Assembly: GCA_963789985.1 (NCBI GenBank)
Contig: CAWBNA010000019.1
Span: 198,051 to 262,050, forward strand
Length of the DNA: 64,000 bases
Direction of reading: 5' to 3'
Origin: an uncultured Bacteroidales bacterium
Lineage (GTDB): Bacteria; Bacteroidota; Bacteroidia; Bacteroidales; VadinHA17
The position numbers and the translations under genes were made by a program. Positions 721 to 21,705 of this stretch are shown in pieces. A model generated the notes under the pieces. It saw only the letters and a program-made list of their open reading frames with translations. It was not told the DNA's origin and made no database searches. Position 1 is the first letter of the stretch. Every line of letters starts with the position of its first letter.

Positions 721-730
721 TAATAATAAG

Positions 731-1849: not shown

Positions 1850-2094
1850 ATTACCAGCGATTACTTTATTGCCTTGATTGAGCACCCACGTCATGAAATG
1901 TCGTCAGTAAGGGAAAATCAGATATGAATGTTCTGATCGTTTTTCAGTGTGATCAATTATTTTGAGGAAAATACGGTTGGAAGTCTTAAAAGAGTCATCA
2001 GAAAATCAGTTTTTTTAAGGTTTAAATGACATAAAATCGTTTATAATTATCTGTTTCTTAGATAAATAATTTTTTTTTTGCAATATTTTTAATT

Positions 2095-2127
2095 TTTAAC
2101 ATTTAATTTAAAAAAATGTTAAATTTG
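2095..2127 (+). promoter_or_regulatory. Candidate susC promoter: -7 box TAAATTTG (2120-2127) overlapped by inverted repeat TTTAACATTT-N9-AAATGTTAAA
   Basis: Matches the Bacteroidota TAnnTTTG consensus. Perfect 10-bp inverted repeat at 2095-2104 / 2114-2123. Confidence 0.45.
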
Positions 2128-2256
2128 TTTATTGAGAATTCATGATTTAACTTGATTAAATCTGAGGTTCTGACAACCTTAAAACCTTGAATACAATTTT
2201 AACGAACTTATTTTAATTGTTATTTAACTACCATAACTTAACCAAATCAACTCACT

Positions 2257-5200
2257 ATGCGGACTTTTCGGAATTTATTATTCATGTTGAGAGGATGTTT
2301 GATTTGTCTTCTCTTTTTTGGCTTTGCAATCGGCTCAGCCAATGCTCAGCAAAGAACGGTCAAAGGTAAAGTTACTTCAAAAGAGGAGGGGCCTTTACCC
2401 GGAGTAAATGTAGTACTTCAGGGAACAGTGCAGGGAACCTCCACTGATGTGAATGGTAATTTTACCATTTCTGTTCCGGGTCCTGCTGCAATTCTGGTCT
2501 TTACTTTTATCGGTTACAACTCTCAGACCATTACTGTCGGAGACCGTAATCAGATTGACGTGGAAATGGCTGCCTCAATCAGCGCTCTAAGCGAAATTGT
2601 GGTTACGGGATATGGCACACAGAAGAAAGGGGAAATTACAAGTTCCATTTCCACTGTAAAATCGGATGAGTTCAACAAAGGCAGCATTGAAAGGCCTGAA
2701 CAACTGATCGAAGGAAAGGTTGCAGGACTGTCCATTACAAAGCCCGGAGGCGACCCTAACGGATCATATAACATTCGCTTAAGGGGCCTAAGTACGATTG
2801 GTGCAAATACACAACCTCTGGTTGTTATCGACGGGGTGGTCGGGGCAAGCCTCGATAACGTAGATCCAAATGATATTGAAACAATAAATGTACTGAAAGA
2901 TGGCTCTGCCGCAGCTATATATGGAACACGGGGATCAAGCGGTGTTATTCTTGTAACAACCAAACAGGGCAAAAAAGGCACAGCCACCGTTGAATACGAT
3001 GTTTATGGAACAATGGAGACAGTTGCAAAGAATACTCCTGTTATGAATGCTACTGAATGGAGGGCCTTGCATAATGAGCTTGGTCTTGGAACTGATTTTG
3101 GAAAAAGCACTGACTGGTTTAAGGAAATAGAGCAAACAGGTTATACAATGGTTCATGGCCTTTCGCTTTCAGGCGGAAGTGATAAAACCACCTACAGGGC
3201 TTCAATCAATTACCATGATGCTCAAGGCATTGAGCGGAATACTGGAAACAATATAGTTAATGGAAGGATCAGTCTTTCTCAAAAAGCAATAAAGGATAAA
3301 TTTACCTTTGATGTGAACCTGGGAGGTACAGAAAAAACAGCACAATTGTGTTATCCCAATGCATTCAGATATGCAACAATTTATAATCCGACCGCTCCTG
3401 TAAGAAGCACTGATCCGGCTTATACAATGTATGACGGCTATTTTCAGCAGGTTCTGTTCGATTACTATAACCCGGTACAGATTGTGAATGAAGATGTAAA
3501 TGAACAGAAAAGCAGAATAATGAACCTTACATTAAAGGGTACCTATGAAATCCTTAAAGGACTGAACATTGATGCTTCTTATTCAATGCAGAACAATAGC
3601 ACATTAGCGGGTCAGTACTATAATTCACATGATTACTGGGGAGGAATGAACAGGAATGGCTTAGCTTCAAGACAGGAAGATAATACCGCCAGCCGGCTTT
3701 TTGAATCAACTGCACACTGGATGGGTAGAATAGGTTCTGATGTTGACCTCACGGTATTGGGAGGCTATTCTTATCAGGATTTTGTCAACGAAGGCTTTTA
3801 TGCTCAGGGAGGAAATTTTATCACTGATGATTTTTCTTTCAATAATCTCGGTGCTGCCCTTGATTTTAAGAATGGATTGGGCACAATAACAAGTTATAAA
3901 AACTCAAATAAACTGATCGCATTTATCGGACGTGTCAATTTGAATGTCAGCAATCTTTGGTTTGTAAATGCAAGCGCCAGGTATGAAGGATCATCCAGGT
4001 TTGGTGTAAACCATAAATGGGGCTTATTCCCATCTATTGGCGGTGGATTGGATCTGGCCAAGCTGCTTCAGGTTGATGCCATTGATAATCTGAAAGTAAG
4101 GGCCAGTTATGGTATAACCGGAAACCAGCCAAGCTCCAGTTATTTGTCAGTGCTTCAACTGGGTCCTCAGGGCAATTTCTACTATAATGGCAGCTATGTC
4201 CCTGGTTATTCACCGATTAGCAATGCTAATCCGGATCTTAAATGGGAAAAGAAAGGTGAAATTGATGCAGGGTTTGATTTTTCATTATTTAAATCTACAT
4301 TATCAGGTTCATTCGACTATTATACAAGAACTACAACTGACTTGTTATGGCAGTATGTTGTACCTGTTCCGCCAAACCTTTATCAACAGGCATGGATGAA
4401 CATTGGGAAATTAAGGAGCGCCGGCCTGGAATTGACACTTACATGGAATGCCGTTAAGAGACCTGATTTTACTTATAGTATGACTATAACACCCTCTTAC
4501 AGTATCGAGAACACTCTGGTTTCCCTTTCCGGGACCTTTAATGGTTCTAAACTGACTTATGGAATTCAGGATCTGAGTGATATGGGCTCACCAGGGCAAA
4601 ATCAGGTTCCATTGGTAAGGTTACAGGAAGGTAAACCGATCGGTCAGCTTCTTGCACTCCAATTCAAGGAAATTGATCCACAGGGGAACGAAATCTTTGT
4701 TGATCAGAACAAAGATGGAACAATTGACCAGGCTGACCGTGTAATAGTTGGCAATGGCCTGCCGAAATTCCTGATGGGATTTGCAAATACATTCGGCTAC
4801 AAGAACTTTGACCTGAATATATTCTTCCGTGGTATATTCGGACATGATCTTGTGAATTCATTCCGCGGCTTTTATGAAGTGCCAAGGATGATCGGATCAT
4901 ACAACCTGCCAAAAACTGCTGCAGACCAGAGAAATCCCACTACACACGTTCTTCTTAACAGCTCTTCGGGTCTTTTATCAAGCAAGGATGTTGAAAATGC
5001 TTCTTTTGTTTCTCTTGATAATGTCAGCCTGGGTTATAATTTCATTTTACCTAAGAGTTCAGCATTCAGCAAGCTTAGAGTTTATATTGCCGGAAATAAC
5101 TTATTTTATATTACCAAATATAAAGGTGTAGATCCTAACCCAAGATATGTGGATAGTGCTACCGATATGGGAACATATCTTAGTCCGCTTGTACCAGGTA

Positions 5201-5265
5201 TCGACAGAAGGGATGAATGGTTCAGAACCAGATCATTTACTTTTGGTGCAAACGTCGTTTTTTAA
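2257..5265 (+). CDS. susC: SusC/RagA family TonB-dependent outer-membrane transporter
   Basis: Signal peptide, CarboxypepD-like N-domain, VVTGYG, plug motif VLKDGSAAAIYGTRGSSGVILVTTK, NPDLKWE, C-terminal F. Confidence 0.97.
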   Translation: MRTFRNLLFMLRGCLICLLFFGFAIGSANAQQRTVKGKVTSKEEGPLPGVNVVLQGTVQGTSTDVNGNFTISVPGPAAILVFTFIGYNSQTITVGDRNQIDVEMAASISALSEIVVTGYGTQKKGEITSSISTVKSDEFNKGSIERPEQLIEGKVAGLSITKPGGDPNGSYNIRLRGLSTIGANTQPLVVIDGVVGASLDNVDPNDIETINVLKDGSAAAIYGTRGSSGVILVTTKQGKKGTATVEYDVYGTMETVAKNTPVMNATEWRALHNELGLGTDFGKSTDWFKEIEQTGYTMVHGLSLSGGSDKTTYRASINYHDAQGIERNTGNNIVNGRISLSQKAIKDKFTFDVNLGGTEKTAQLCYPNAFRYATIYNPTAPVRSTDPAYTMYDGYFQQVLFDYYNPVQIVNEDVNEQKSRIMNLTLKGTYEILKGLNIDASYSMQNNSTLAGQYYNSHDYWGGMNRNGLASRQEDNTASRLFESTAHWMGRIGSDVDLTVLGGYSYQDFVNEGFYAQGGNFITDDFSFNNLGAALDFKNGLGTITSYKNSNKLIAFIGRVNLNVSNLWFVNASARYEGSSRFGVNHKWGLFPSIGGGLDLAKLLQVDAIDNLKVRASYGITGNQPSSSYLSVLQLGPQGNFYYNGSYVPGYSPISNANPDLKWEKKGEIDAGFDFSLFKSTLSGSFDYYTRTTTDLLWQYVVPVPPNLYQQAWMNIGKLRSAGLELTLTWNAVKRPDFTYSMTITPSYSIENTLVSLSGTFNGSKLTYGIQDLSDMGSPGQNQVPLVRLQEGKPIGQLLALQFKEIDPQGNEIFVDQNKDGTIDQADRVIVGNGLPKFLMGFANTFGYKNFDLNIFFRGIFGHDLVNSFRGFYEVPRMIGSYNLPKTAADQRNPTTHVLLNSSSGLLSSKDVENASFVSLDNVSLGYNFILPKSSAFSKLRVYIAGNNLFYITKYKGVDPNPRYVDSATDMGTYLSPLVPGIDRRDEWFRTRSFTFGANVVF

Positions 5266-5284
5266 ATCTAAAAATGAATGAGAC

Positions 5285-7015
5285 ATGAAAACAAAAGAAA
5301 GAAATAAAATAGGAACGACATTTTACCTAAGATTAATATTAGGTATCTTTATTGTAGCTGCTGTTGGACAATCCTGTACGAAGCTGGATGAAACACTTTA
5401 CAGTAATGTTACCCCAGCCAATTTCTTCAAATCGGACCAGGAATTTGTATCGGCCCTGGGAGCTGCATATACTCAGCTGGGGAATTATGCTTCACAGGAG
5501 ACTTATGCCCTGCAGGAACTTACCACCGATGAGATGACTTGTCCTACAAGGGGACAGGATTGGGATGACGGCGGTAACTGGAGAAGACTTCATCTGCATT
5601 CATGGAAAACTGAAGATAACGCAGTAACTAATGCCTGGAGCTTTGATTTTGCCGGCATTAATACATGTAACCGTTTGATTTATCAGTTTCAAAGCTTGTC
5701 GGCCAGCGGACAGGTTAATGCAAGCACGGCTGCATCATATATTGCAGAACTTCGGACGCTGCGAGGTTTCTTTTACTGGCAGCTGGTTGATATGTATGGC
5801 AATGTGCCTATGGATACAAGTTTTGTCAACGTTTCTGCAGCACCTCCTACTGCATCAAGAAGTACTATTTACAACATGCTTATCAGTGATCTGGAAGCTG
5901 CTGTTCCCCTGTTGACAAGAACAGTGGGCGGAACAGCTTATGGCCGTATTAATTATTATGCAGGAAAGTGCCTGTTAGCAAAGTTATACCTGAATGCAGG
6001 AGTTTATGTAAATGCCCCTGCATGGGCTAATGTGGTTGCTGCCTGTGATACGATAATCAACTCCGGCAAGTATTCTCTGGAAAGCAATTACTTTACGAAT
6101 TTCAATGTAAATAACTCCGGTTCTAAGGAATTTATCTTTGCTATACCTTATGACAAAGTATTTTTCACAGGTTTCGAATGCGGGGCTCAGTCATTGCACT
6201 ATGGAAACCAGTACACCTATAACCTTCAATATCAACCCTGGAATGGCTTTTGTACTCTTCAGGAATTCTACAATTCCTATAGTGATAACGACCTTAGAAA
6301 GGGTGATGTTGGCACACTGCAAGGTCCTCAAAAAAGACGTGGTAATTTTCTTGCAGGATATCAATACAGGGCTGATGGGGCTACTTTAGTTACTGATGAT
6401 GGATTTGAAGCTCCTAACCCTACACGTCAACCTGCACCTTTGCTTGGAGACCCTGATGGCGCTCCGCTTAATTTTGGAAATATGTTTTCAACGCAACCAC
6501 AGATAAATGAATTGGGTCCACAGGCATATCGCCAGTCAGGTGTAAGAATCGGTAAATGGGAATATGAAATAGGAGGTACATCAGAAATGAGTAATGATTG
6601 GTGCGTATTCCGTTACGCAGATGTACTGTTGATGAAAGCAGAAGCACTCTGGCGCATAAGCAATAATTCGCAGGATCCTCAGGTACTGGCTCTTGTTAAC
6701 CAGATCCGGGAACGTGCCGGTTTAACGGATCTTACTACTATTGATAGTGCTCTGAGTTTTGACCTTGCCGGTGGTACTGTTGCCGGTGGAGAATTATTCA
6801 ATGAAATGGGACGTGAAATGTTCGCTGAGCACAACAGGAGACAGGATCTGATCCGTTGGGGATACTTTACCGATAATGATAAATGGGTGCTTCCATTTTA
6901 TAACCCGGGAGATGTGCTTAACTCAGGCAGTAGTTTTTCTTATCTCACAATTTTCCCGCTTGGCAGGGCTGTACTTTCTGCTAATCCTAATCTGGTACAA
7001 AACCCAGGTTATTAG
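5285..7015 (+). CDS. susD: SusD/RagB family lipoprotein
   Basis: Lipobox GQSC, LRGFFYWQLVDMYGNVP, FRYADVLLMKAEA, RRQDLIRWG, C-terminal QNPGY. Lies directly after susC. Confidence 0.96.
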   Translation: MKTKERNKIGTTFYLRLILGIFIVAAVGQSCTKLDETLYSNVTPANFFKSDQEFVSALGAAYTQLGNYASQETYALQELTTDEMTCPTRGQDWDDGGNWRRLHLHSWKTEDNAVTNAWSFDFAGINTCNRLIYQFQSLSASGQVNASTAASYIAELRTLRGFFYWQLVDMYGNVPMDTSFVNVSAAPPTASRSTIYNMLISDLEAAVPLLTRTVGGTAYGRINYYAGKCLLAKLYLNAGVYVNAPAWANVVAACDTIINSGKYSLESNYFTNFNVNNSGSKEFIFAIPYDKVFFTGFECGAQSLHYGNQYTYNLQYQPWNGFCTLQEFYNSYSDNDLRKGDVGTLQGPQKRRGNFLAGYQYRADGATLVTDDGFEAPNPTRQPAPLLGDPDGAPLNFGNMFSTQPQINELGPQAYRQSGVRIGKWEYEIGGTSEMSNDWCVFRYADVLLMKAEALWRISNNSQDPQVLALVNQIRERAGLTDLTTIDSALSFDLAGGTVAGGELFNEMGREMFAEHNRRQDLIRWGYFTDNDKWVLPFYNPGDVLNSGSSFSYLTIFPLGRAVLSANPNLVQNPGY

Positions 7016-7043
7016 CGTACAATTTTTAAATTAGTTTTTCAGG

Positions 7044-7081
7044 AGAGCAGGCAATTGCTATATTTGCTTGCTCTTTTTTTT
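7044..7081 (+). terminator. Intrinsic terminator after susD
   Basis: 11-bp stem AGAGCAGGCAA/TTGCTTGCTCT (one G-U pair) followed by a T-run. Confidence 0.75.
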
Positions 7082-7110
7082 ACAGAAAGTTTAAGGCATT
7101 TACTAATCAT

Positions 7111-10100
7111 ATGATCAGATATTTTCAGGATACAGTTGTTTCTTTAAAGTACAGATGCTTTGAAGCTGTACTTTTGATCCTGATTATCTTGTCGTTAGGC
7201 TCCTGTAATCCGAAGGAACCAGGGAATAAGGTAAAACAACTTTTTTCACTTCTTAATAAAAGCCATACGCATATAGGTTTTATAAATAAAGTCGACTATA
7301 ACGAAGAATATAATACATACACATACCGGAACTTTTACAACGGGGCCGGCGTCGGAATTGGTGACTTTAATAACGATGGTTTGCCGGATATATATTTTTG
7401 CAGCAACCAGACAGGAAACAAGCTCTATATAAACAAGGGAAATTTTGTTTTTGAAGATGTAACTGAAAAGGCAGGTGTCGGTTGTGAAGGCTCATGGTCA
7501 ACAGGAGTCAGCATAGCCGATGTGAATGGCGATGGCTGGCCGGATATCTATGTTTGCAAATCAGGTAAGCTTGGCGGTCCGCATAGGGCGAACGAATTGT
7601 TCATTAATAACGGAGACCTTACATTTACTGAAAAAGCAGCTGAATATGGACTCGCAAATGTAGGATTGTCAAACCATTCTGCATTTTTTGATTATGATCG
7701 CGACGGAGATCTCGATTGTTATCTTCTCGATAACTCCCTTCAGTCAGTAACCGAATTTGATATGAAGCCCGGGCAACGTCAGATTCCCGATTCTCTCGGA
7801 GGAAACAAACTTTTCAGGAATGATTCCGGACATTTTGTCAATGTGACAAGGGAAGCAGGTATATACGCAAGTAAGATTGGTTTTGGGCTCGGCGTAAGTA
7901 TTGCTGACGTGAACCGGGACGGGTGGTTAGATATCTATGTTTCAAATGATTTTTTTGAACGCGACTACCTCTATATCAATAACAAAAACGGAACTTTTAC
8001 AGAAGCGCTTGAGGATCAGATTCGTGAAATAAGCCTCAGCACAATGGGCGCCGATATAGCTGACATAAACAACGATACTTATCCCGACATATTTACAACC
8101 GATATGACTCCGGAAGGAAATGAACGCCTGAAAACAAAAGCTTTGTTCGACAGCTGGGATACGTACCAGATGAAGTTAAAAAATGGCTATTATCATCAGT
8201 TTGGAAGAAATGTTCTTCAACTGAATAACCGCAATGGTTCTTTTAGCGAAATAGGAAGGTTAAGCGGGGTCAGCAGGACTGACTGGAGCTGGGGAGCACT
8301 GATAATGGATCTTGATAATGACGGATGGAAAGATATTTTTGTAGCTAATGGTATTTACAAAGACCTGCTCGACCGCGATTATCTCGATATATATTCAAAT
8401 CCTTCCATGATGCGTTCAATAATCAGAACCGAGCAGAAGGCAATATTGAAGCTTATCGACATGATCCCCTCGGTTAAGGTCCCAAATTACGCTTTTCATA
8501 ATAACGGCGATCTTACCTTTACAAACTATGCCGGCGTATGGGGGCTTGACCAGCCTTCATTTTCAAACGGAGCAGCTTATGGGGATCTCGATAATGACGG
8601 TGCCCTTGATCTTGTTGTAAACAACGTGAACATGCCTCCCTTTGTTTACAGGAACATGACCAGCGAAAGAAAAGAAGCAAATTTTCTGACATTGAACCTT
8701 AAAGGTACCGGAAAAAATATTGAGGCAATCGGTGCTTCAGTAACAATTTACTATGACGGAAAAACAAGTTATCTGGAACTTGTACCTTCACGGGGATTTC
8801 AATCCTGTGTTGATCCGAGACTTCACTTTGGCCTGGGGAAAGCAACTTCAGTTGATTCACTGATAGTAAACTGGCCTGATGGCAAGTGCACTGTTTTGCA
8901 CAATTTGGCTGTAAACCGTTTTTTAACTCTTGATGAAAAGGATGTAGGCGGAAATTGCTTGAACTATCCGGCAAAATCTCAGCCGGTGATTTTTCAAAGA
9001 ACGGAACAAATAAAGGGTCTTGATTATACACATAAAGAAAGCGATTTTATTGATTTTGAAAGAGACAAACTTTTGTTTGAGGGTTTATCCAATGAAGGGC
9101 CCCATATGGCGGTCGGTGATGTAAATGGCGACGGACTTGATGATATATTCATATGCGGGGCCAAAAACAGTCCTGGTGCCCTTTTTGTACAGGACAGGTC
9201 AGGTCACTTCAGAAGGACAAATGAAGCGCTGTTTGATAAAAACAGAATATCAGAAGATACAGACTGCTGTTTTTTTGATGCTGATGGCGATGGTGATATT
9301 GACCTGTACGTTGCCAGCGGAGGAAATGAATTGCCATCTACCTCATCCGCTCTGGCGGACCGGCTGTACATAAACGATGGCAAGGGGAACTTTGTAAAAA
9401 GCAAACAGGTTCTGCCGGCAGGGAAATATGAGAGTACATCGTGCGTCAGGCCTGCCGATTTTGACAAGGACGGCGATATGGATCTTTTTGTGGGAATCCG
9501 TTTGCAGCCGTTTGCCTATGGCGTACCTGTAAATGGTTATCTCCTTGAAAATGACGGGCATGGTAATTTTAAAAATGTGACAGCCCAAAAAGCTCCGGGA
9601 TTAATAAATATCGGGATGATAACGGATATGCAATGGGCGGATGTTAATAATGACGGGTATCCGGATATGGTTATAGTGGGCGATTGGATGCCGGTAAAGA
9701 TCTTTATAAATAATCACGGATATTTTACTGACGAATCTGAAAAGTACGGATTGAAAAATACGGAAGGATGGTGGCATACCATAGTCGCAAAAGACCTGAA
9801 CGGAGACGGGAAAATAGACTTTGTTCTTGGTAACCAGGGCTTAAATTCATTTTTCAGGGCTTCCATAGAAAAACCCGTAACGATGTACGTGAATGACTTT
9901 GACCTGAACGGAACTATTGATCAGATAATCTGCACCTACAACGGAGATAAATCCTATCCTGTTGTAATGAAGGATGAGCTGGTAAAACAAATTCCCTCCC
10001 TGGCATTAAAATATATGAAATACAGCGATTATAAGAATCAGACTATCGAGGACATTTTCCCGAAGGAAGTGCTGGACCGTTCGATAAAACTCAATGCAAA

Positions 10101-10467: not shown

Positions 10468-10475
10468 CTTGGATT

Positions 10476-11072
10476 ATGAAGATAAAAACCACATGGCTAA
10501 TAGCACTTTTGATTTCAGGATCTATTATTTCCGGATGTTCACCCAGGGCAAGATATGAACACAGGCTGAAACATGAACTTGCTAGAGGGGTGCGATGTGA
10601 TTCATTGTTTATGGGCCTTTATCTGGGAATGCCGCAGAAAGATTTTTATATGCGGTGCTGGAAACTTAACAAAAAAGGATTGATCAGACAGGGTACAAAT
10701 AACGCATCTGTTGAATATACTTTGAATGGAGAGCTAAAGTATCCGGGAACCATGAATTTTTATCCAAAATTTTCAAATGGCAGAATATCCGCAATGCCGG
10801 TAAGGTTTGTCTATAGCGGGTGGTCACCTTGGAATAAAAAATTGTCAACCGATAATCTGGAAGCAGATGTATTAAGATATTGTAAAAGGACTTATGGAGG
10901 AGTGTTTATACCGGTAAAACATCATGAAAGAGGTATGGCTTACGTTAAAATTGACGGAAACAGGCAGATTTCAATTTTTAAAGATGTTGAGCCATACGTC
11001 CAGGTTGTTTTTACTGACTTGCTGGCAAAAAAAGATTCTATCAGTTCATCTCCTGTTGGAAATAGCAAATAG
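10476..11072 (+). CDS. Hypothetical lipoprotein
   Basis: Lipobox ISGC after a hydrophobic stretch. ORF fits tightly between paralogs 1 and 2. Confidence 0.7.
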   Translation: MKIKTTWLIALLISGSIISGCSPRARYEHRLKHELARGVRCDSLFMGLYLGMPQKDFYMRCWKLNKKGLIRQGTNNASVEYTLNGELKYPGTMNFYPKFSNGRISAMPVRFVYSGWSPWNKKLSTDNLEADVLRYCKRTYGGVFIPVKHHERGMAYVKIDGNRQISIFKDVEPYVQVVFTDLLAKKDSISSSPVGNSK

Positions 11073-11103
11073 AATTCATACCAGGCTCCTGAAAAAAAAC
11101 AGG

Positions 11104-14100: not shown

Positions 14101-14469
14101 GAAACTTCATTGTTCCTGAATGACGGGAACGGCCATTTCACCAGAAAACCCCTGCCAATCGAAGTGCAGCTTTCTCCGGTTTATTCAATATATGTAGGTG
14201 ATTTTAACGGCGACGGTAATCTCGACATACTGCTTGGCGGTAACCTGTACAATGCAAAACCTGAAACAGGACGGTACGATGCAAGTTACGGGACATTCCT
14301 TCTGGGCGACGGGAAAGGAAATTTCAGGAATGTACCGGCAAAGGAATCAGGATTCCGCGTGAAAGGTGAAGTCAGGGATATGATGGAAGTAAAAACCGCA
14401 AAAGGCAATATTCTGGTTGTTGCCAAAAGCAATGCTCCGATGCAGGTTTTCAAAGAATCAGGAAGATGA
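11104..14469 (+). CDS. FG-GAP/VCBS-repeat + ASPIC/UnbV domain lipoprotein, paralog 2
   Basis: Start moved from 10924 to in-frame ATG 11104 (MFNKTKS...ILAC lipobox), which removes the overlap with the upstream gene. Same repeats, plus RGFLSTSDNRPNIGLG...EWPD. Confidence 0.88.
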   Translation: MFNKTKSDNIPIKSALLLIPVFILACGRQSGQHVEKRLFTLMPSSYTHAGFENKLDVNKQVSSNFNIYTYRNFYNGGGVALGDVNNDGLIDIFLTANMGYNVLYLNKGNFKFEDISEKAGIRGKGNWSTGVCMADVNGDGFLDIYVCKSGNAVTDDRHNELFINNGDLTFTECAKKYGLDDNGYSTQAIFFDYDRDGDLDMYLLNNSSRAIGSFNLKNNQRFIRDSLGGDRLFRNDGNKFTDVSEEAGIYGSVIGFGLGVSVTDFNEDGWPDLYISNDFFERDYLYINNGDGTFSEKLTDMIPSISAASMGADVADINNDRFPEIFATDMVPEHNDRLKTKTTFDSWDSYKSNVNNGYYYQFTRNMLQLNNGDGTFSDIGRMAGVNATDWSWGALIMDLDNDGLKDLFVANGIYKDLTDQDYLQYFSNRDMMMSVMSGKKVDYKALIDAIPSVKIPNYAFKNLGNYKFQNMAAPWGLDMPSFSNGAAYGDLDNDGDLDLVINNVNMPLFIYRNETNHKIPDNHYLKVILKGEPRNTEAIGAKVTVKNAGTFYYVEQSPTRGFLSTSDNRPNIGLGPLKMVDSLIVEWPDNRVTLLTNVKTDQILTLYQKDAVQMSLNLVDTVSNRNRFFIDISNEHRINFRHIEDDFNDFDQMPLIFNMISTEGPHMCKGDVNGDGLEDIFIGGAKGQPGALMIQRKDGTFESIDKPLFEADKLSEDMGCAMFDANGDGYPDLYVASGSNEFPETSSALADRLYINDGKGHFTKSPQILPAGKYESTSCVRPEDYDHDGNIDLFVGVRLKPFLYGVPVNGYILKNDGKGIFTNVTPMIAPELQNVGMIHDMVWADVNGDGNKDIILAGDWMPLKVFINENGKFREKKDAFSEKTDGWWNCLAIGDFNNDGKIDFIAGNHGLNSRFRASAEKPVDMYVNDFDLNGTVEQVICTYDGDKSYPLALKHDLTKQIPALEKKYPKYEMYKNQQITDIFTPEQLSKAIHLHAYLLETSLFLNDGNGHFTRKPLPIEVQLSPVYSIYVGDFNGDGNLDILLGGNLYNAKPETGRYDASYGTFLLGDGKGNFRNVPAKESGFRVKGEVRDMMEVKTAKGNILVVAKSNAPMQVFKESGR

Positions 14470-14478
14470 ATTTTTATT

Positions 14479-17400
14479 ATGAAAAACCTGACATTGATTC
14501 TGATTGCACTTATTTTTCTTTCTGCCTGTAAACAAAGGACTGATCATGATGAACATCTGTTTACGCTGTTATCTCCTTCTTATACTCATGTGAATTTCAC
14601 AAATAAACTCACTGAAACAGAGCAGGCGAATATTATTGAATATCTCTATTTCAACAATGGGGCAGGTGTGGCGGCCGGTGATATTAACAATGACGGACTT
14701 ATTGATTTATTTTTTACTTCCAATCAGGGGCCGAATAAGCTGTTCCTCAACAAGGGTAATATGAAATTTGAAGATATTACAGATGAAGCCGGAGTAGCAG
14801 GAAAAGGCAGCTGGAAAACCGGCGTGACCATGGCTGATGTAAACGGAGACGGGTTACTTGATATTTATGTCTGCGAAGTAGGAAATTATAAAAGTTTTCA
14901 TGGAAAGAACCAGCTCTTTATAAATCAGGGCAACCTCAGGTTCAAAGATGAAGCTCATGATTATGGACTTGATTTTTCGGGTTTTTCAACTCAGGCGGCT
15001 TTTTTTGACTATGATATGGATGGCGACCTTGATATGTACCTTCTGAATCATTCAGTGCATACATCAAGAAGCTATGGTGGAGCACAACTGCGCTACCAAT
15101 TTGATCCGAGGGCGGGAGACAGGCTTTTCAGGAATGATGTCCTGAACGGGAAGAATGTATTCCATGATATTACACGTGAGGCGGGAATTTACAGCAGCCA
15201 GATTGGCTATGGCCTTGGAATAAGTATCAGTGATGTTAACAATGATGGTTTTCCTGATATCTATATATCAAACGATTTTCATGAAAATGACTATTTGTAC
15301 ATAAATAACGGAAACGGAACTTTCAGTGAGCGGCTGACAGATATGATCAGACATACGAGCAGATCTTCAATGGGTAATGATATTGCTGATTTCAACAATG
15401 ACGGATTGCCTGATATAATGGTCCTTGATATGATGCCTGATAAGGAAAAAATAAGGAAACAATCTGGCGGCGAAGATGATTATGAGCTCTTTAAAATGAA
15501 AAGAGATTACGGGTATAATTACCAGTACGTACGCAATACTCTTCAGCTTAATCTGGGTGGAGATATGTTCAGTGAAATAGGACTGCTGGCAGGAGTTTAC
15601 TCAACTGACTGGAGCTGGTCGCCCTTGTTCTGTGATGTTGATAATGACGGATGGAAGGACCTGTTTATTACGAATGGCATTTACAGAAGATCGAATGATC
15701 TTGATTATGTAAAGTTTCTGACCGGAGGCAACCGCTACTTTCCGACAAAGGATAACAGCTCATTATCTGATCGTGAACTATATGAAAAGATGCCGCTTTA
15801 TCCGAATGTGAATTACATCTACAGGAACAACAGGGACCTGACCTTTACAAATATGGCAAAGGAATGGGGATTTAATGTCAAATCATATTCCAATGGATCA
15901 ACATATGCGGATCTTGATAATGACGGTGACCTTGACCTTATTGTAAACAATATAAATGCAAATGCCTTTATTTACAGGAACAATGCCGAACACAAGCTTA
16001 AAAATCATTATATATCCGTTGTCCTGAAAGGCAAAGGGCTTAATACTAATGGAATAGGAGCTCGCGTGACAGTTTTCTCCAATGGGACCAGGCAGATTGC
16101 CGAACAGTTCCCGACCAGAGGTTTCCTTTCTTCTACAATTGGCCCGCTGCATTTCGGTCTGGGAAATGCAGATGTGATCGATTCTTTGTCTGTGCAATGG
16201 CCCGATTTATCTGAACAGACTCTTAAAGATGTAAAGGCCGACAGGATTGTCACATTTGATATGTCGAATGCCGGGAAGCGCACTGGAATACGGAAAGCGG
16301 AAAGTCCAAAAGAGTTGATCTTTACTCCTTTAACTGTTCCCGGACTTGCTTTCAGGCATGTTGAAGATGCATATTCGGATTTCAGCAGAGAGCATCTTAT
16401 TCCTCACAGTTTGTCTGCCGAAGGTCCCGCAATTGCTACGGCTGATGTAAACGGAGACGGAATGGACGATATATTCATCGGAGGGGCTAAAGGCCAGGCA
16501 TCTGAAATTTTTATTCAGCAAAGCGACGGCAGTTTCAAAAAGCTGGATGTGCCGGCTTTGAAAGAACCCCATTATTCGGATGACACGGATGCTTTGTTTT
16601 TTGATGCTGATGGTGACGGGAAACCAGACCTTTATATTGTCAGAGGAGGTAACGAACTTCCTGCGGGAAATCCATTCCTCAGCGATCTTCTCCTCATAAA
16701 CGATGGCAAGGGAGGGTTCAGGAAATGTGATAATGGAGCATTGCCGTTAATGTCTCATAACGGTTCGTGCGTACGGGCATGTGATTTTGACAATGATGGC
16801 GACCTCGACCTGTTTGTGGGATCCCGATCCATACCGGGAGCCTATGGCCTGTCTCCGGATCAATACCTTCTTGAAAATGACGGCCACGGACATTTCAAAG
16901 ATGTTACTGAAGCCAGAAGTGCCGGACTTAAGAAAATCGGGATGGTAACGGATGCATGCTGGGTCGATTACGATAAGGATGGATATAAGGATCTGGTAGT
17001 TACTGGAGAATGGATGAAAGTGTGCATTTTCAAAAATGAGAAGGGGAATTTTAAAGATGTGACACAACAGGCTGGCCTTGATCAGACTTCAGGATGGTGG
17101 AACTGCGTTAAGGCCGCTGATATCGACGGCGACGGAAACATGGATCTGATAGGAGGGAATCTTGGATTGAATTCGATGCTCAGGGCCTCCGTCAGCGAAC
17201 CTGTGGAAATGTACCTGAATGACTTCGATAACAACGGCTCTGTTGACCAGGTGATATGCTCCTATATGGATGGCATCAGCTATCCTGTTGCCTCACTTGA
17301 TGAACTTATGGAGCAGATATCGGGGCTGGGGAAAAAATTTCCTCATTATTCCGATTTCGGAGGGAAAACTGTTAAAGATATTTTTGGTACAAGTTCAGTT

Positions 17401-17799
17401 GAGAAATCAGACATTAAAAAAGCAGTGCTTTTTGAAAGCTGTGTATTCCATAATAATGGAAATGGAACTTTCAAAATTTACAAACTTCCTGTTGAAGCCC
17501 AGTTTTCTCCGGTACGCGGCATAATAGTAAACGACTTTAATGATGACGGTATAAAGGATATTGTAATTGCAGGGAATGATTATCAGGTCAGACCTTCGCT
17601 GGGGAGATATGACGCAAGCTACGGGTGGTTTCTGGAGGGTAAGCCTGATGGTACATTTAAGGCGATTATGCCTGCAGAAAGCGGACTTGCAATAAATGGA
17701 GATGCCCGTAAGATCGTCAGCATCACAATTCATGGGAAACATTGCCTTGCTGCTGCAGTGAACAATGGCGATCTGCAGATTTTCAGGGCAGGGAAGTAG
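14479..17799 (+). CDS. FG-GAP/VCBS-repeat + ASPIC/UnbV domain lipoprotein, paralog 3
   Basis: Lipobox LSAC, DxNxDG repeats, RGFLSSTIGPLHFGLG...QWPD. Confidence 0.88.
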   Translation: MKNLTLILIALIFLSACKQRTDHDEHLFTLLSPSYTHVNFTNKLTETEQANIIEYLYFNNGAGVAAGDINNDGLIDLFFTSNQGPNKLFLNKGNMKFEDITDEAGVAGKGSWKTGVTMADVNGDGLLDIYVCEVGNYKSFHGKNQLFINQGNLRFKDEAHDYGLDFSGFSTQAAFFDYDMDGDLDMYLLNHSVHTSRSYGGAQLRYQFDPRAGDRLFRNDVLNGKNVFHDITREAGIYSSQIGYGLGISISDVNNDGFPDIYISNDFHENDYLYINNGNGTFSERLTDMIRHTSRSSMGNDIADFNNDGLPDIMVLDMMPDKEKIRKQSGGEDDYELFKMKRDYGYNYQYVRNTLQLNLGGDMFSEIGLLAGVYSTDWSWSPLFCDVDNDGWKDLFITNGIYRRSNDLDYVKFLTGGNRYFPTKDNSSLSDRELYEKMPLYPNVNYIYRNNRDLTFTNMAKEWGFNVKSYSNGSTYADLDNDGDLDLIVNNINANAFIYRNNAEHKLKNHYISVVLKGKGLNTNGIGARVTVFSNGTRQIAEQFPTRGFLSSTIGPLHFGLGNADVIDSLSVQWPDLSEQTLKDVKADRIVTFDMSNAGKRTGIRKAESPKELIFTPLTVPGLAFRHVEDAYSDFSREHLIPHSLSAEGPAIATADVNGDGMDDIFIGGAKGQASEIFIQQSDGSFKKLDVPALKEPHYSDDTDALFFDADGDGKPDLYIVRGGNELPAGNPFLSDLLLINDGKGGFRKCDNGALPLMSHNGSCVRACDFDNDGDLDLFVGSRSIPGAYGLSPDQYLLENDGHGHFKDVTEARSAGLKKIGMVTDACWVDYDKDGYKDLVVTGEWMKVCIFKNEKGNFKDVTQQAGLDQTSGWWNCVKAADIDGDGNMDLIGGNLGLNSMLRASVSEPVEMYLNDFDNNGSVDQVICSYMDGISYPVASLDELMEQISGLGKKFPHYSDFGGKTVKDIFGTSSVEKSDIKKAVLFESCVFHNNGNGTFKIYKLPVEAQFSPVRGIIVNDFNDDGIKDIVIAGNDYQVRPSLGRYDASYGWFLEGKPDGTFKAIMPAESGLAINGDARKIVSITIHGKHCLAAAVNNGDLQIFRAGK

Positions 17800-17848
17800 A
17801 CAGCCAGCGTTTATGTATTTCTTAAACACTGACTTTATTAAAGGACAG

Positions 17849-18325
17849 TTATATCTTTTCCTTTTTGTATGACAACGATATACTGTTTTTGTCTGCAAAC
17901 GCTTCAGTTCCTTTTTTTAATGATTCATTAAGATCAGTATATGTTGTGCCCAGGCGAATGGTGATTTTCCTTCCCGATTTAAGAAAAAACAAGATTGAAA
18001 GCGGGTACACTTCAATTTTATCAATTTCTGAGATCTCAAAATTCTGAGGCGGAAGCATTGATACCCTCTTTAAAATCAATGTGGTTTGTCCGAATTCAAT
18101 ATATCTTTTCGCCTTACCCATGCCGGACAGGATCTCAAAATAACTGAAACCAATCAGAAAAGCTATTGTCAGCCATACTGAACCTGTTGATTTATATGTT
18201 GTTATATTGAGGATGATCCATGTAATTGCTACTATAAGGCAGACAAAGCCGAATGCGAGCTGAATCACTTTCACTGCCTTATTATCGTTTGTTGCCTCGA
18301 GGGGGAAATGATTTTTTTCCATCAC
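17849..18325 (-). CDS. Hypothetical membrane protein (two N-terminal TM helices)
   Basis: 158-aa ORF with two hydrophobic segments followed by a soluble domain. Confidence 0.65.
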   Translation of the reverse strand: MMEKNHFPLEATNDNKAVKVIQLAFGFVCLIVAITWIILNITTYKSTGSVWLTIAFLIGFSYFEILSGMGKAKRYIEFGQTTLILKRVSMLPPQNFEISEIDKIEVYPLSILFFLKSGRKITIRLGTTYTDLNESLKKGTEAFADKNSISLSYKKEKI

Positions 18326-18476
18326 TGTTTTAAATATGGCTTATTTCTTCTTACAAAAAATGTATGGAATTCCATTCCAAATATTTAACATTTTTTCACA
18401 ACAGCCAAATTGCTTTTAATTTGACTTTAAACATAAAAGTTATAATTTTATAACTTGTAAAACAAAATAACAATAT

Positions 18477-19241
18477 ATGAAATACTCTTTGATTTCCAGC
18501 GTGCTGTTGTGCATGAGCAGCTTTGCTTTTGCCCAGCAGCCAAAACAGGAACCAGCTCCGATGACGCCTCAAATGACCGAGATTATGGACCCTGAAGTAA
18601 AAGTAATAGAGCCGCCGGCACAGGCCGGGATGCCACCTTCGGATGCCATTATATTGTTCGATGGCACTGATATCAATAAAGAATGGACAGACTTAAAGGG
18701 TAATCCTACCAAATGGATTGTTCAGGATGGTGCTATGATTAGTACAAAAGGTTCAGGAGATATACAGACCAGGAGAAAATTCAACGATTTCCAGCTTCAT
18801 GTTGAATGGCGTTCTCCTTCGGAAGTGACAGGAGAAGGGCAGGGCAGAGGGAATAGCGGAGTATATCTTCAGGGACTTTATGAAGTTCAGGTTCTTGACA
18901 GCTACAACAACAGAACCTACAGACAGGGGCAGGCAGGCAGTCTTTACAAGCAGTATGCCCCTCTTGTGAATGTATGCAGAAAACCAGGCGAATGGCAGAG
19001 TTATGATATTATTTATACGGCACCACGTTTTGCTGCCGACAGTTTGGTTTATTTTACACCGCCAAGGGTCATTGTTCTTCAAAACGGGGTTTTAATACAG
19101 AATAATGTCAGCCTCAGGGGTCCGACACTTTATATCGGAATACCGGAATACTCAGTCAAAAAGCACGGTGCCGGCCCGATATTATTGCAGTATCATGGTA
19201 ATCCGGTGGCATTCAGGAATATCTGGATCAGAGAACTTTAG
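18477..19241 (+). CDS. DUF1080 (3-keto-disaccharide hydrolase family) secreted protein
   Basis: Signal peptide, LFDG, GNSGVYL, YEVQVLD, GEWQSY, LQYHGNPVAFRNIWIREL. Confidence 0.92.
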   Translation: MKYSLISSVLLCMSSFAFAQQPKQEPAPMTPQMTEIMDPEVKVIEPPAQAGMPPSDAIILFDGTDINKEWTDLKGNPTKWIVQDGAMISTKGSGDIQTRRKFNDFQLHVEWRSPSEVTGEGQGRGNSGVYLQGLYEVQVLDSYNNRTYRQGQAGSLYKQYAPLVNVCRKPGEWQSYDIIYTAPRFAADSLVYFTPPRVIVLQNGVLIQNNVSLRGPTLYIGIPEYSVKKHGAGPILLQYHGNPVAFRNIWIREL

Positions 19242-19346
19242 TTTCGTGAGTCTGGAATCAGTGGCAATGGAATATTATGAAAATCATTTTGCATTTTATA
19301 ATTTTACATATCAATCAAATCGAAATCAAATTTAAAATACCTGACA

Positions 19347-20837
19347 ATGAAAGAAAATTCTAACAACATTACCCGCCGGGACTTTATTGGAAAAACCGGC
19401 GCTGTTGCAGCTGGCCTTACAATTCTTCCCGGGACAGTTATCAGCGGTTTTGGCCACAGGGCTCCAAGCGACAAGCTTAATATAGCAGTCGTAGGAATCG
19501 GCGGAATGGGAAATTCAAACCTTAAAGCAGTAGCTCCTACTGAAAACATAATTGCTTTATGCGATGTGGACTGGGCTTATGCAAAAAAGGTATTTGATGC
19601 AAACCCAAATGCAAAACGTTACTGGGACTGGCGCAAGATGTTTGATGAAATGGGCAAATCAATTGATGCCGTCATTGTTGCCACTGCTGACCACAGCCAC
19701 TGTATTGTTGCTTCAAATGCAATTACAATGGGAAAGCATGTCTATGTTCAGAAACCTCTGACTCACTCAGTTTATGAATCGAGGCTGCTGACCAAACTTG
19801 CTGCAAAATACAAGGTAGCAACCCAGATGGGTAACCAGGGATCATCAGGCGAAGGAGTTAATCTTACTGTTGAATGGCTGCAGAACGGAGAAATCGGCGA
19901 TGTAAAGAAAGTTGAAGCATTTACTGATCGTCCAATCTGGCCGCAGGGATTGAATGTTCCCAAAGGTGAATGGGTTCCCGATACTCTTAACTGGGATCTC
20001 TTTATTGGCCCGGCAAAGATGCGTCCTTACAACAGCCTTTATACTCCATGGAACTGGAGAGGCTGGTGGGACTTTGGCACAGGCGCACTTGGTGACATGG
20101 CCTGCCATATTCTGCATCCTGTATTTAAGGGACTGAAGCTTAAATATCCGGTCAGAGCACAGGGAAGTTCAACCCTTTTGCTTACCGACTGTGCCCCGAA
20201 TGCCCAGATGGTAAGGCTGGTTTATCCTGAAAGAGTTACTGCTAAAAATGCAAAAATGAAATTACCGGAAGTTGAAGTGATCTGGTACGATGGTGGATTA
20301 CAGCCTCCTAAACCAACGGGATGGCCGGCTGGGAAAAACATGAATGATGCCGGAGGAGGAGTTGTTTTCCACGGAACAAAAGATAAACTGATTTGCGGTT
20401 GTTATGGGAAAAGCCCATGGCTGCTTTCAGGCCGTGTACCTGTTGTTCCCAAGACGGAACGAAGAGTTCCGGATCAGGTCAGCCACGAGATGGATTGGGT
20501 GCGTGCCTGCAAGGAAAGCCCTGAAAGCAGAGTGATGTCAAAATCGGATTTCTCCGAAGCAGGACCGTTTAACGAAATGGTTGTTATGGGTGTTCTTGCA
20601 GTCAGACTCCAGGGCCTGAACAAAGAACTTGAATGGAACGGAGAAAAAATGGAATTCACAAATATCAACGCCGACGATAAAGTGAGACTTACAATCTCAG
20701 ATAATTTCACAATCATCGATGGCGATCCTAAATTCAACAGACCGGATATCTCATTGAATGCAAGGGACTTCGCTTCTGAAATGATTAAGCACACTTACAG
20801 ACAGGGCGGTTGGACATTACCTGAAATGCCTGCTTAA
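19347..20837 (+). CDS. Tat-exported Gfo/Idh/MocA NAD-dependent oxidoreductase (putative glycoside 3-dehydrogenase)
   Basis: Twin-arginine TRRDFI, GIGGMG, HVYVQKPLTH, WRGWWDFGTGALGDMACH. Confidence 0.92.
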   Translation: MKENSNNITRRDFIGKTGAVAAGLTILPGTVISGFGHRAPSDKLNIAVVGIGGMGNSNLKAVAPTENIIALCDVDWAYAKKVFDANPNAKRYWDWRKMFDEMGKSIDAVIVATADHSHCIVASNAITMGKHVYVQKPLTHSVYESRLLTKLAAKYKVATQMGNQGSSGEGVNLTVEWLQNGEIGDVKKVEAFTDRPIWPQGLNVPKGEWVPDTLNWDLFIGPAKMRPYNSLYTPWNWRGWWDFGTGALGDMACHILHPVFKGLKLKYPVRAQGSSTLLLTDCAPNAQMVRLVYPERVTAKNAKMKLPEVEVIWYDGGLQPPKPTGWPAGKNMNDAGGGVVFHGTKDKLICGCYGKSPWLLSGRVPVVPKTERRVPDQVSHEMDWVRACKESPESRVMSKSDFSEAGPFNEMVVMGVLAVRLQGLNKELEWNGEKMEFTNINADDKVRLTISDNFTIIDGDPKFNRPDISLNARDFASEMIKHTYRQGGWTLPEMPA

Positions 20838-20866
20838 TTGTGTAATTAAATAATTTTGTTATCATC

Positions 20867-20894
20867 GCAGAGACGGAAAATATTCCGTCTCTGC
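20867..20894. repeat. Perfect 12-bp-stem hairpin GCAGAGACGGAA-aata-TTCCGTCTCTGC
   Basis: Read directly from the intergenic sequence between the oxidoreductase and the second DUF1080 gene. Confidence 0.8.
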
Positions 20895-20925
20895 ATTATA
20901 AAAAAAACAATAACAACGTATCACT

Positions 20926-21684
20926 ATGAAATTTATAAACATTCTTCTGTCATGTGTTCTTGTCATCGGACTTGCAACATCATGCGGCTCAAAAGGGAAA
21001 AATGTAAACAAAGAGGCACCGAAGACCGGACAGGCTGCGGCACCGGCTGAAAACTGGAAAGTCCTCTTTGACGGAACATCAACTGCCGGCTGGCGTGCTT
21101 ATGAAAAACCAGCTTTCCCAGAAAAAGGATGGGAGGTTGTAGACGGAACTCTCCATTGCATAGCATCCGGCAATGGAGAAGCCGGAGGACCCGGCGGCGA
21201 TCTCATCTACGACAAGAAGTTCAGTAATTTTGAACTGTCGTGGGAATGGAAAATCGGTCAGGGAGGAAACAGCGGTGTATTCATTCTTGCCCAGGAAATA
21301 CCAAATGAACCAATCTGGAAATCCGGCCTTGAGTATCAGTTACTGGATAATGACCGGCATCCTGATGCTCAGCTTGGAGTAAACGGGAACCGTAAAGCCG
21401 CTTCTTTGTATGATCTTATTCCTGCCAATCCGCAAAACACGAAGCCCGCAGGTGAATGGAACCAGTCAGGGATTTTGTGCTACCAGGGAACGGTCGTCTT
21501 CAAACAGAATGGCGCAAATGTTGTCGAATTCCACCTGTGGACAGATGACTGGAAGAAAATGGTTGCGAATTCCAAGTTTAAAGACTGGGATTGGTTTATT
21601 AACCCTGCTAAAGAAGGTTATATAGGCCTCCAGGATCATGGAAGCGATGTATGGTTCAGAAATCTCAAAATCAGGGAATTGTAA
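20926..21684 (+). CDS. DUF1080 family lipoprotein
   Basis: Lipobox ATSC, LFDG, GGNSGVF, EYQLLD, GEWN, IGLQDHGSDVWFRNLKIREL. Confidence 0.92.
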   Translation: MKFINILLSCVLVIGLATSCGSKGKNVNKEAPKTGQAAAPAENWKVLFDGTSTAGWRAYEKPAFPEKGWEVVDGTLHCIASGNGEAGGPGGDLIYDKKFSNFELSWEWKIGQGGNSGVFILAQEIPNEPIWKSGLEYQLLDNDRHPDAQLGVNGNRKAASLYDLIPANPQNTKPAGEWNQSGILCYQGTVVFKQNGANVVEFHLWTDDWKKMVANSKFKDWDWFINPAKEGYIGLQDHGSDVWFRNLKIREL

Positions 21685-21705
21685 AAATATCCTTAAATTG
21701 TTGTT

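Follow-up and report, generated by a model that had tools for sequence, protein, structure and literature searches.

The gene order of SusC and SusD followed by ASPIC propeller proteins has already been drawn in print as a predicted 'trehalose' polysaccharide utilization locus (PUL) (Kappelmann et al. 2019, ISME J, PMC6298971, Supplementary Fig. S2J), and an oxidative (3-keto) pathway encoded by BT2157-BT2160 is described as the primary trehalose route of Bacteroides thetaiotaomicron (Liu et al. 2021, PMC8121099). Here we describe a locus in which the two stand side by side, located at positions 2257..21684 of a 64,000-nucleotide stretch of DNA (the window) from an uncultured Bacteroidales bacterium of the VadinHA17 lineage (GenBank assembly GCA_963789985.1, contig CAWBNA010000019.1, positions 198,051 to 262,050 of the forward strand). 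Tentatively, and at slightly less than even confidence, we read the locus as a variant of the trehalose/alpha-glucoside-type SusCD system in which an oxidative module replaces hydrolases and the propeller proteins serve as non-catalytic accessory subunits. The genes and their families, the conserved order and orthologous positions of the cassette, its neighbours in other genomes, and the fold similarity are observed here, and the biochemistry of BT2157 and BT2158 comes from the literature; we infer which sugar is imported, that the oxidative module stands in for hydrolases, and that the propellers have no catalytic part.

The term 'ASPIC' occurs 29 times in Table S3 of Kappelmann et al. (PMC6298971), and 27 of these mentions fall in 19 PULs, in genes after SusD. 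Of these 19 North Sea PULs, 10 have the substrate label unknown; two each are labeled trehalose, glucuronoxylan, and xylan; and one each is labeled alpha-glucan, galactose-containing polysaccharide, and sulfated xylose-containing polysaccharide. Three ASPIC genes are present in four of the PULs, labeled trehalose, trehalose, alpha-glucan, and unknown, the last of these with a PAP2 gene. Related SusC/SusD proteins were expressed in North Sea blooms. The gene order is therefore known in print; the propellers are not discussed there. The SusCD-propeller order of the window matches that of PULs 103 and 116 in the same study, with a major facilitator superfamily (MFS) transporter nearby as a further likeness. 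Those PULs carry LacI, PAP2, glycoside hydrolase family 13 (GH13), and GH37 genes, none of which is present in the window, whereas the window has a DUF1080-BT2158-DUF1080 module, a second Gfo/Idh/MocA protein with a twin-arginine translocation (Tat) signal, a kinase, and a NagB-like gene.

In B. thetaiotaomicron, BT2158 has a Tat signal and BT2157, a DUF1080 protein, cleaves 3-keto-trehalose (Liu et al. 2021, PMC8121099). DUF1080 enzymes are reported to be alpha-specific lyase/hydratases, the beta-anomer requires a BT2156-type enzyme, and BT2158 plus a DUF1080 protein is enough for alpha-glucosides (Nasseri et al., preprint 10.1101/2024.03.25.586180). The window shares with BT2156-BT2160 a Tat-signal BT2158 equivalog flanked by DUF1080 proteins with export signals, and differs in having no BT2156-like beta-lyase, no BT2159-family gene, and no SusR-like BT2160 counterpart in its locus. 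The BT2156-like gene looked for was of the AP_endonuc_2, xylose-isomerase-like TIM barrel type, and the best match to BT_2159_fam (32.1 bits) falls on the BT2158 equivalog. With two DUF1080 genes and no BT2156-like gene, the module of the window looks alpha-specific, and its two exported DUF1080 proteins are predicted from their family to be 3-keto-alpha-glucoside lyase/hydratases, the first of them a periplasmic 1,2-lyase/hydratase.

The cassette opens with a gene for a SusC/RagA TonB-dependent transporter (2257..5265, + strand; TIGR04056, 684.1 bits against a cut-off of 368.25) with CarboxypepD_reg, Plug, and barrel domains in Pfam. The gene for a SusD-family lipoprotein (5285..7015, +; PF07980, 109.5 bits) adjoins it with 19 nt between, an adjacent pair of the kind that defines the core of a Sus-like PUL. 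Three paralogous propeller lipoproteins of about 1,110 amino acids (aa) each follow, P1 (7111..10467, +), P2 (11104..14469, +), and P3 (14479..17799, +), all with a lipobox cysteine and with FG-GAP_3 and UnbV_ASPIC matches in Pfam. Between P1 and P2 lies a conserved, family-less lipoprotein of 198 aa (10476..11072, +) with the motifs GWAPWNK and VDGNRRI. The longest open reading frame (ORF) of P2 opens at 10924, and its signal peptide and lipobox begin at 11104, the true start. Intergenic gaps within the cassette are 8 to 95 nt.

Downstream of P3 are a first DUF1080 protein (18477..19241, +; PF06439, 149.1 bits) with a Sec signal peptide, a Gfo/Idh/MocA glycoside 3-dehydrogenase (19347..20837, +) that scores 849.5 bits against the BT_2158 equivalog model NF058561 (cut-off 750) and carries a twin-arginine signal (motif TRRDF), and a second DUF1080 protein (20926..21684, +; PF06439, 170.8 bits), a lipoprotein whose lipobox cysteine is followed by non-acidic residues (C-GSKGK). 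Upstream of SusC lie a NagB-like sugar-phosphate isomerase/deaminase (31..720, +; PF01182, 54.9 bits), cytoplasmic and with no signal peptide, and a PfkB-superfamily kinase of the 'prokaryotic ketohexokinase' family (731..1849, +; PF25270 Khk, 170.7 bits), followed by an AT-rich spacer of 407 bp. Among NCBIfam models the NagB-like protein scores 170.7 bits against TIGR00502 nagB and 169 bits against AgaI, both below the cut-offs. Immediately before the first position of the window, and in the orientation of the locus, come an MFS transporter and a second Tat-signal Gfo/Idh/MocA protein (G000:C19:195192-198050, or L001 15142-18000), the latter at 428.7 bits against BT_2158_fam, below the cut-off. 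No glycoside hydrolase, polysaccharide lyase, or carbohydrate esterase family of Pfam was found in any ORF of 2257..21684 or in the upstream MFS, Gfo, NagB-like, and Khk genes.

These results agree with much of a preliminary description of this DNA. The ORFs, Pfam matches, and lipoboxes confirm its sequence of susC, susD, and three lipoproteins of about 1,100 aa with FG-GAP and UnbV_ASPIC domains; the two PF06439 matches and the NF058561 score confirm the DUF1080-Gfo/Idh/MocA-DUF1080 order downstream, and the NagB-like and PfkB genes are present upstream as it stated. It was also right that the locus holds no classical carbohydrate-active enzyme (CAZyme), and the equivalog score above cut-off supports its identification of the adjoining module as a BT2158/DUF1080 oxidative glycoside-cleaving system. 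Its statement that ASPIC/UnbV proteins have no assigned biochemistry is in line with our literature searches, which found none for the bacterial proteins and had the supplements of bioRxiv preprints outside their reach. The genes it listed all stand; the 198-aa lipoprotein and the upstream pair of MFS transporter and second Tat-signal Gfo protein were missing from its list.

If the locus is of the trehalose type, SusC and SusD would take up a small alpha-glucoside of the trehalose class, and P1, P2, P3, and the small lipoprotein would be co-transcribed, non-catalytic subunits of the importer that bind the substrate, pass it on, or provide a scaffold. Elsewhere in Bacteroidota a GH37 trehalase, or enzymes of GH65, GH31, or GH13, would split the imported sugar; this Bacteroidales lineage of anaerobic sediment would use a periplasmic oxidative route instead. 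The Tat-exported BT2158 equivalog would oxidize the sugar at C3, the two DUF1080 proteins would eliminate the alpha-aglycone and then hydrate the resulting glucal, and the upstream operon (MFS transporter, second Tat-signal Gfo protein, kinase, and NagB-like isomerase) would feed the products to central metabolism. Most simply, there would be a single type of importer for trehalose-class alpha-glucosides, behind which the downstream modules can be exchanged.

Relatives of the cassette were collected by a scan of one genome per species, with 476 confirmed; the best 80 were kept, which make up 76 loci (L numbers) from Bacteroidales, Cytophagales, Chitinophagales, Saprospiraceae, Flavobacteriales, Rhodothermales, and Calditrichota records. 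Neighbours were taken within 3 genes on the strand of the cassette or 2 genes on the other strand, and 211 ORFs were searched with Pfam, with 12 selected ORFs omitted by hand. Because only 53 of the 76 loci reach at least 15 kb, all neighbour counts are lower bounds. Alpha-glucoside-active families stand beside the cassette in 10 of the 76 loci: GH37 in L012, L031, and L046; GH65 in L024, L027, L031, and L033; GH31 in L033, L043, L059, and L077; GH13 in L046; and GH97 in L065. A trehalose-6-phosphate synthase/phosphatase fusion is found once (L025), and LacI regulators are found in 8 loci. Cultured carriers of the cassette include Chryseolinea serpens DSM 24574 (L045), Marinoscillum furvescens DSM 4134 (L023), and Algoriphagus aquimarinus DSM 23399 (L025). 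DUF1080, searched with a profile made from the hits, is present in 6 loci (L007, L009, L016, L021, L023, and L075) and a BT2158-like Gfo protein in 4 (L007, L009, L023, and L075).

Since the 76 loci had been picked by likeness to the window, an even sample of 61 Bacteroidota genomes (G numbers, the window's own being G000) was searched in addition for GH37, DUF1080, and UnbV_ASPIC. Full-length GH37 (at least 390 bits) occurs in 15 of these genomes, as a single copy in 13, and UnbV_ASPIC is present in 11 of the 15 as well. Five of those 11 (G007, G012, G017, G036, and G039; family codes f3, f4, f5, and f20) have GH37 within 16 kb of UnbV_ASPIC, at distances of 2.7 to 15 kb on the same contig; chance proximity is estimated at a few per cent per genome, on the assumption that a genome of 3 to 4.5 Mb holds two to four such loci, each about 32 kb long. 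The trehalase-linked loci have the order [LacI]-SusC-SusD-P-P-GH65-PAP2-...-GH37, with SusC and GH37 on the same strand in all 5 and PAP2 present in 3. DUF1080 occurs in 24 of the 61 genomes, 16 of which also have UnbV_ASPIC; among these 16, the two lie no more than 16 kb apart only in the genome of the window, G003, and G008. G003 and G008 represent a single genus, and their DUF1080 adjoins a single-propeller form of 575 to 599 aa. In G013 the distance is 28 kb. The probability of a DUF1080 match in a 23-kb stretch is about 1 to 2.4%, so that 6 of 76 loci is a modest enrichment at most.

A full-length GH37 gene was not found in the genome of the window, where the only match to PF01204 is partial (67.8 bits) and lies on another contig. 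Five close relatives were checked for GH37: L007 and L009, with the BT2158 module by the cassette, gave no match, in genomes whose completeness is not stated, and in L075 GH37 is present far from the cassette. At one contig end of genome G023 (G023:C39:15-3899), about 2 kb separate a DUF1080 gene from a full-length GH37 trehalase, which hints that hydrolytic and oxidative trehalose enzymes can sit together.

P1, P2, and P3 each have FG-GAP_3 matches (261 to 298 bits) on either side of a single UnbV_ASPIC domain (64 to 82 bits), with 13 to 14 calcium-loop motifs of the form Dx[DN]x[DN]G per protein; P1 and P2 are 58% identical, and P2 and P3 are 47% identical. In the AlphaFold2 model of P1 (predicted local distance difference test [pLDDT] 94.3, predicted template modeling score [pTM] 0.92), residues ~42-616 appear as a CRTAC1-like unit composed of a propeller and a UnbV_ASPIC sandwich. 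This part matches murine CRTAC1 (PDB 9ETN, for which our literature search turned up no publication) with a Foldseek E value of 3e-27 and a VIA Z score of 41.6 (root mean square deviation [rmsd] 2.4 over 461 residues, 22% identity). The model shows a second propeller, of the 7-bladed type, at residues 623-1118, with LGI1 EPTP (Z 31.6), KICSTOR/ITFG2 (29.4), aldos-2-ulose dehydratase 4A7K (28.5), BBSome propellers (27), and WD40 proteins (25-26) as best folds. A profile of 127 propeller sequences compared with the PDB matched solely CRTAC1 (3e-29) and integrin alpha chains, including alpha-V (about 3e-7). Vertebrate CRTAC1 thus shares with the N-terminal half of P1 the FG-GAP-type calcium-loop propeller and the UnbV/ASPIC domain; the bacterial proteins, unlike CRTAC1, are lipoproteins with a second propeller (623-1118) that occur as three paralogues encoded behind SusC/SusD.

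The nearest solved structures (CRTAC1, integrin alpha-V, and LGI1 EPTP) are binding modules. Because the fold resembles such modules and PULs of many glycans carry propellers, the propellers are probably accessory subunits rather than 'missing' cleaving enzymes; the occurrence of ASPIC proteins after SusD in xylan, beta-glucoside, galactan, and trehalose PULs likewise argues for a general accessory role. We consider it improbable that they are instead periplasmic enzymes, whether of a new lyase or hydrolase family or with a metal-dependent eliminase, dehydratase, or isomerase activity toward glycosides or keto-sugars. The absence of any CAZyme from the locus by Pfam would suit such a role, yet every well-resolved context of the cassette already has GH37, GH65, or BT2158 plus DUF1080. 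The C-terminal propeller of P1 does align with that of the Phanerochaete chrysosporium aldos-2-ulose dehydratase 4A7K (Z 28.5, rmsd 3.4 over 350 residues, 9% identity), but this score lies within the range of unrelated 7-bladed propellers, between WD40 proteins (25-26) on one side and LGI1 EPTP and ITFG2/KICSTOR on the other, and does not exceed that of many non-enzymatic propellers. The 127-sequence profile search of the PDB gave no lyase or hydrolase, and lyases are absent from the structure-match lists of P1 (Foldseek and VIA) as well, which does not exclude one. Invariant or near-invariant positions outside the calcium loops (W392-S393-W394, H641, E643, E283, K341, and Q363 in the 127 sequences) include polar and aromatic residues as an active site might; the inference of a catalytic pocket from invariant residues alone was rejected. 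The nine positions specific to the P2 clade are scattered across both halves of the protein and point to no interface.

Most propellers have no acidic surface-export signal and so may face the periplasm, where the chemistry would happen, which also fits an enzyme. Against this, the same protein type occurs in PULs for chemically unrelated glycans, and the B. thetaiotaomicron control genome has no UnbV_ASPIC match yet runs the oxidative pathway. The supplements of Liu et al. contain neither the term 'ASPIC' nor 'FG-GAP'. The preliminary description had proposed the propellers as the missing cleaving enzymes, with the aldos-2-ulose dehydratase as a clue, or as lectins, and had named a lack of DUF1080/Gfo enrichment near such loci among the results that would count against it. 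The proposal of missing enzymes is not supported: BT2158 and DUF1080 suffice for alpha-glucosides, the nearest structures are binding modules, the dehydratase match holds only at the level of a generic 7-bladed propeller, and the lack of general enrichment is largely borne out by the 6 of 76 loci and the one other genus in the 61-genome sample.

SusE/SusF-type glycan-binding proteins are encoded by lipoprotein genes that lie directly downstream of susD, are co-transcribed with it, and vary in number. The propellers are alike in gene position and differ in fold, in mostly having no acidic export signal, and in their many predicted substrates. The export signal of Bacteroidota lipoproteins is K-(D/E)2 or Q-A-(D/E)2 right after the lipidated cysteine (Lauber et al. 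2016). In the related loci, an adjacent D/E pair at +2 to +6 is present in 25 of 42 SusD proteins, 13 of 126 propellers, and 5 of 27 small lipoproteins, and the mean net charge of +1 to +6 is -2.17, +0.17, and +0.30, respectively. In the window, SusD has an acidic, export-signal-like N terminus after lipidation (C-TKLDE); the residues after the cysteine are NPKEP in P1, GRQSG in P2, KQRTDHDE in P3, and SPRAR in the small lipoprotein, with no acidic residue in P2 or the small lipoprotein. By these N-terminal sequences, the scarcity of export signals leans against a role as surface glycan-binding proteins, under a rule that is not absolute, and keeps open that the propellers face the periplasm beside the Tat- and Sec-exported enzymes. 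A more specific proposal, which we regard as doubtful, is that the propellers and the small lipoprotein form a calcium-dependent module on the periplasmic face of the outer membrane that is neither a surface glycan-binding protein nor a CAZyme and that takes small glycosides from SusC and either channels them to periplasmic enzymes or transforms them itself, for instance at the stage of keto-sugar intermediates.

The small lipoprotein is the 'hyp' of the published trehalose PUL drawing (Kappelmann et al.). An alignment of 32 homologues keeps both of its motifs, and the gene directly precedes a P2-clade gene in 17 of 18 cases. At E values of up to 1, it matched no Pfam family apart from one chance match of 12 bits and nothing in the PDB by sequence. 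Its predicted model (pLDDT 92.5) had no Foldseek match at E values of up to 0.001, and the best VIA match, to an Rhs immunity protein, has a Z score of 7.3, in a range that is common in such comparisons. In the Atlas it falls only in unnamed Bacteroidota lipoprotein clusters. A complex prediction for P2 residues 36-618 with residues 22-190 of the small lipoprotein gave scores of 0.00, 0.32, and 0.00, which neither support nor oppose binding.

Loci of Bacteroidales, Cytophagales, Saprospiraceae, and Chitinophagales repeat the order SusC-SusD-P1-small lipoprotein-P2-P3, and shorter SusC-SusD-P-P versions are also present among the 76. A FastTree phylogeny of the 127 full-length propellers was rooted at the midpoint, and a clade was defined as the largest group holding one window paralogue only. 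The P3 clade (52 tips, support 100) holds the last propeller in the locus; in the P1 clade (25 tips, support 98) 17 members lie directly before the small lipoprotein, and in the P2 clade (18 tips, support 94) 17 lie directly after it. As clade membership matches position in the locus, the tree indicates that the triplication is ancient and the positions are orthologous, which in turn argues for non-redundant roles of P1, P2, and P3. In a cassette sub-type seen in L044, L052, and L056, xylose-isomerase-like TIM barrels, FGGY kinases, GH3, and an extra FG-GAP propeller of about 495 aa flank the cassette in place of alpha-glucoside enzymes.

Several observations weigh against the trehalose-type reading, and many of them bear on whether the cassette and the 3-keto module belong together at all. 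The two could be independent neighbours, the module being leftover cargo of a lost SusC'/SusD' pair and the substrate of the cassette unrelated to it; we hold this to be unlikely, though it deserves some weight. L007 and L009 have an inverted P3 and a second SusC'/SusD' pair, which the DUF1080-BT2158 module follows as its own; a second SusC likewise comes after P3 in L008, L011, and L030. In the window, P3 and the first DUF1080 gene are separated by a 677-bp gap that holds a possible minus-strand ORF, so that the 3-keto module is probably a transcription unit apart from the cassette. DUF1080/Gfo is not a general partner of the cassette: it stands beside 6 of the 76 loci, three of them close relatives of the window, and only one other genus has DUF1080 near UnbV_ASPIC in the 61-genome sample. 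The genome's other BT2158 equivalog, which is its best (863.3 bits; L004 10260-12540, G000:C15), belongs to a compact DUF1080-Gfo-Sugar_tr operon without SusCD, and its second cassette (L002, G000:C39:165000-184999) has no DUF1080 or Gfo neighbours.

Against independence, the substrate class to which the GH37, GH65, GH31, and GH13 partners of the cassette point is also that of the BT2158 route. Moreover, 3-dehydrogenases of two unrelated families and DUF1080 are found in or at cassettes elsewhere: L016 has DUF1080-GMC oxidoreductase-DUF1080 inserted between P2 and P3, P3 of L023 is followed by an aldo-keto reductase, DUF1080, and Gfo, and PUL156 of G. forsetii begins with a 'glucoside 3-dehydrogenase', a hypothetical protein, a TonB receptor, SusD, two FG-GAP proteins, and a vanadium haloperoxidase (Kappelmann et al. 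2019, PMC6298971). On its opposite side, the cassette is also flanked by a second Tat-signal Gfo protein with an MFS transporter, both at the locus of the window and in L007, L009, and L075; in L075 this pair sits inverted downstream of the cassette together with DUF1080, kinase, and NagB-like genes. Homologues of the NagB-like protein and the Khk kinase adjoin the cassette in L075 and L078. A functional link between cassette and module through a shared substrate class is plausible, because trehalose and alpha-glucoside enzymes partner the cassette elsewhere and BT2157-BT2160 is a trehalose route.

The remaining points against the trehalose-type reading concern the substrate and the propellers. 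The 'trehalose' label of the published PULs is a prediction from GH37, and their ASPIC proteins are unstudied (PMC6298971). It is not obvious why an importer of disaccharides would need three propellers of 1,100 aa, and since most of these have no acidic export signal they are a poor fit to the classical surface glycan-binding role. Plain trehalose would neither need the kinase and NagB-like pair nor yield the ketose or amino-sugar product at which this pair hints, and trehalose does not account for the frequent PAP2 partner, a protein of about 445 aa of the acid phosphatase/vanadium haloperoxidase superfamily that accompanies the cassette in 16 of the 76 loci and in the 3 trehalase-linked loci mentioned above. 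PAP2, the kinase pair, and the GyrI-like small-molecule-binding proteins that follow the cassette in L069 and L071 would fit if the cassette imported a modified small organic compound (phosphorylated, halogenated, etc.) of which the nearby sugar genes handle one moiety. To this we assign a low probability, as the locus of the window has no PAP2 and the recurrent theme among the relatives is LacI, MFS sugar porters, and alpha-glucoside enzymes.

The possible ORF in the 677-bp gap (17849..18325, - strand) would encode a two-helix membrane protein of 158 aa. Its match to an EbsA-like family is marginal (25.4 bits, cut-off 25.9), and no homologues were found in the related loci or elsewhere in the same genome. 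The locus ends after the second DUF1080 gene, which is directly followed by a minus-strand gene (22350..26123) for a 1,257-aa C25-family cysteine peptidase with propeptide, Ig-like, CARDB, and type IX secretion system C-terminal sorting domains. No regulator of the hybrid two-component, SusR, extracytoplasmic function sigma/anti-sigma, or LacI type was found among the ORFs from L001 13959 to window position 26123. Within positions 1-20000, a scan gave 66 promoter-like sites, compared with 48.6 +/- 7.0 in shuffled sequences, and 12 terminator-like sites, compared with 16.6 +/- 4.2; the scan does not extend to Bacteroidota promoters, and its sites did not delimit transcription units.

The second cassette of the genome has the order SusC-SusD-propeller-Fib_succ_major (220 aa)-propeller-orphan SusD-thiamin pyrophosphokinase. 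Its Fib_succ_major protein, which occupies the slot of the small lipoprotein, was considered as a homologue of the latter and rejected as unrelated. The adjoining stretch (L003, G000:C39:185000-204999) encodes single-propeller UnbV_ASPIC proteins of 576 and 566 aa and a tetratricopeptide repeat (TPR)-fused form of 1,217 aa, clustered with two periplasmic binding proteins, a member of the DAHP-synthase family, a protein whose middle domain is hydrazine-synthase-alpha-like, and a propeller of the YncE/lactonase type that has a cytochrome c/MauG-like part. DNA nearly identical to positions 12000-21700 of the window was detected in a freshwater-sediment metagenome run (0.81 of sampled words) and, at 0.26-0.32, in two peat metagenome runs.

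CRTAC1-like propeller lipoproteins are among the commonest uncharacterized PUL genes of Bacteroidota from soil, sediment, marine, and engineered habitats, and they are relatives of vertebrate CRTAC1, itself biochemically poorly understood. The window yields a testable substrate hypothesis for them, trehalose-class alpha-glucosides, and suggests that non-Koshland oxidative modules and GH37/GH65 hydrolases or phosphorylases may be interchangeable behind one importer. Whether the propellers face inside or outside would sharply narrow their role; a periplasmic module, if it exists, would add a functional class to the known partners of SusCD, one that thousands of loci in Bacteroidota carry. If the trehalose-type reading is true, the BT2158 pathway would extend from gut Bacteroides to environmental Bacteroidales, where it would be linked to TonB-dependent uptake.

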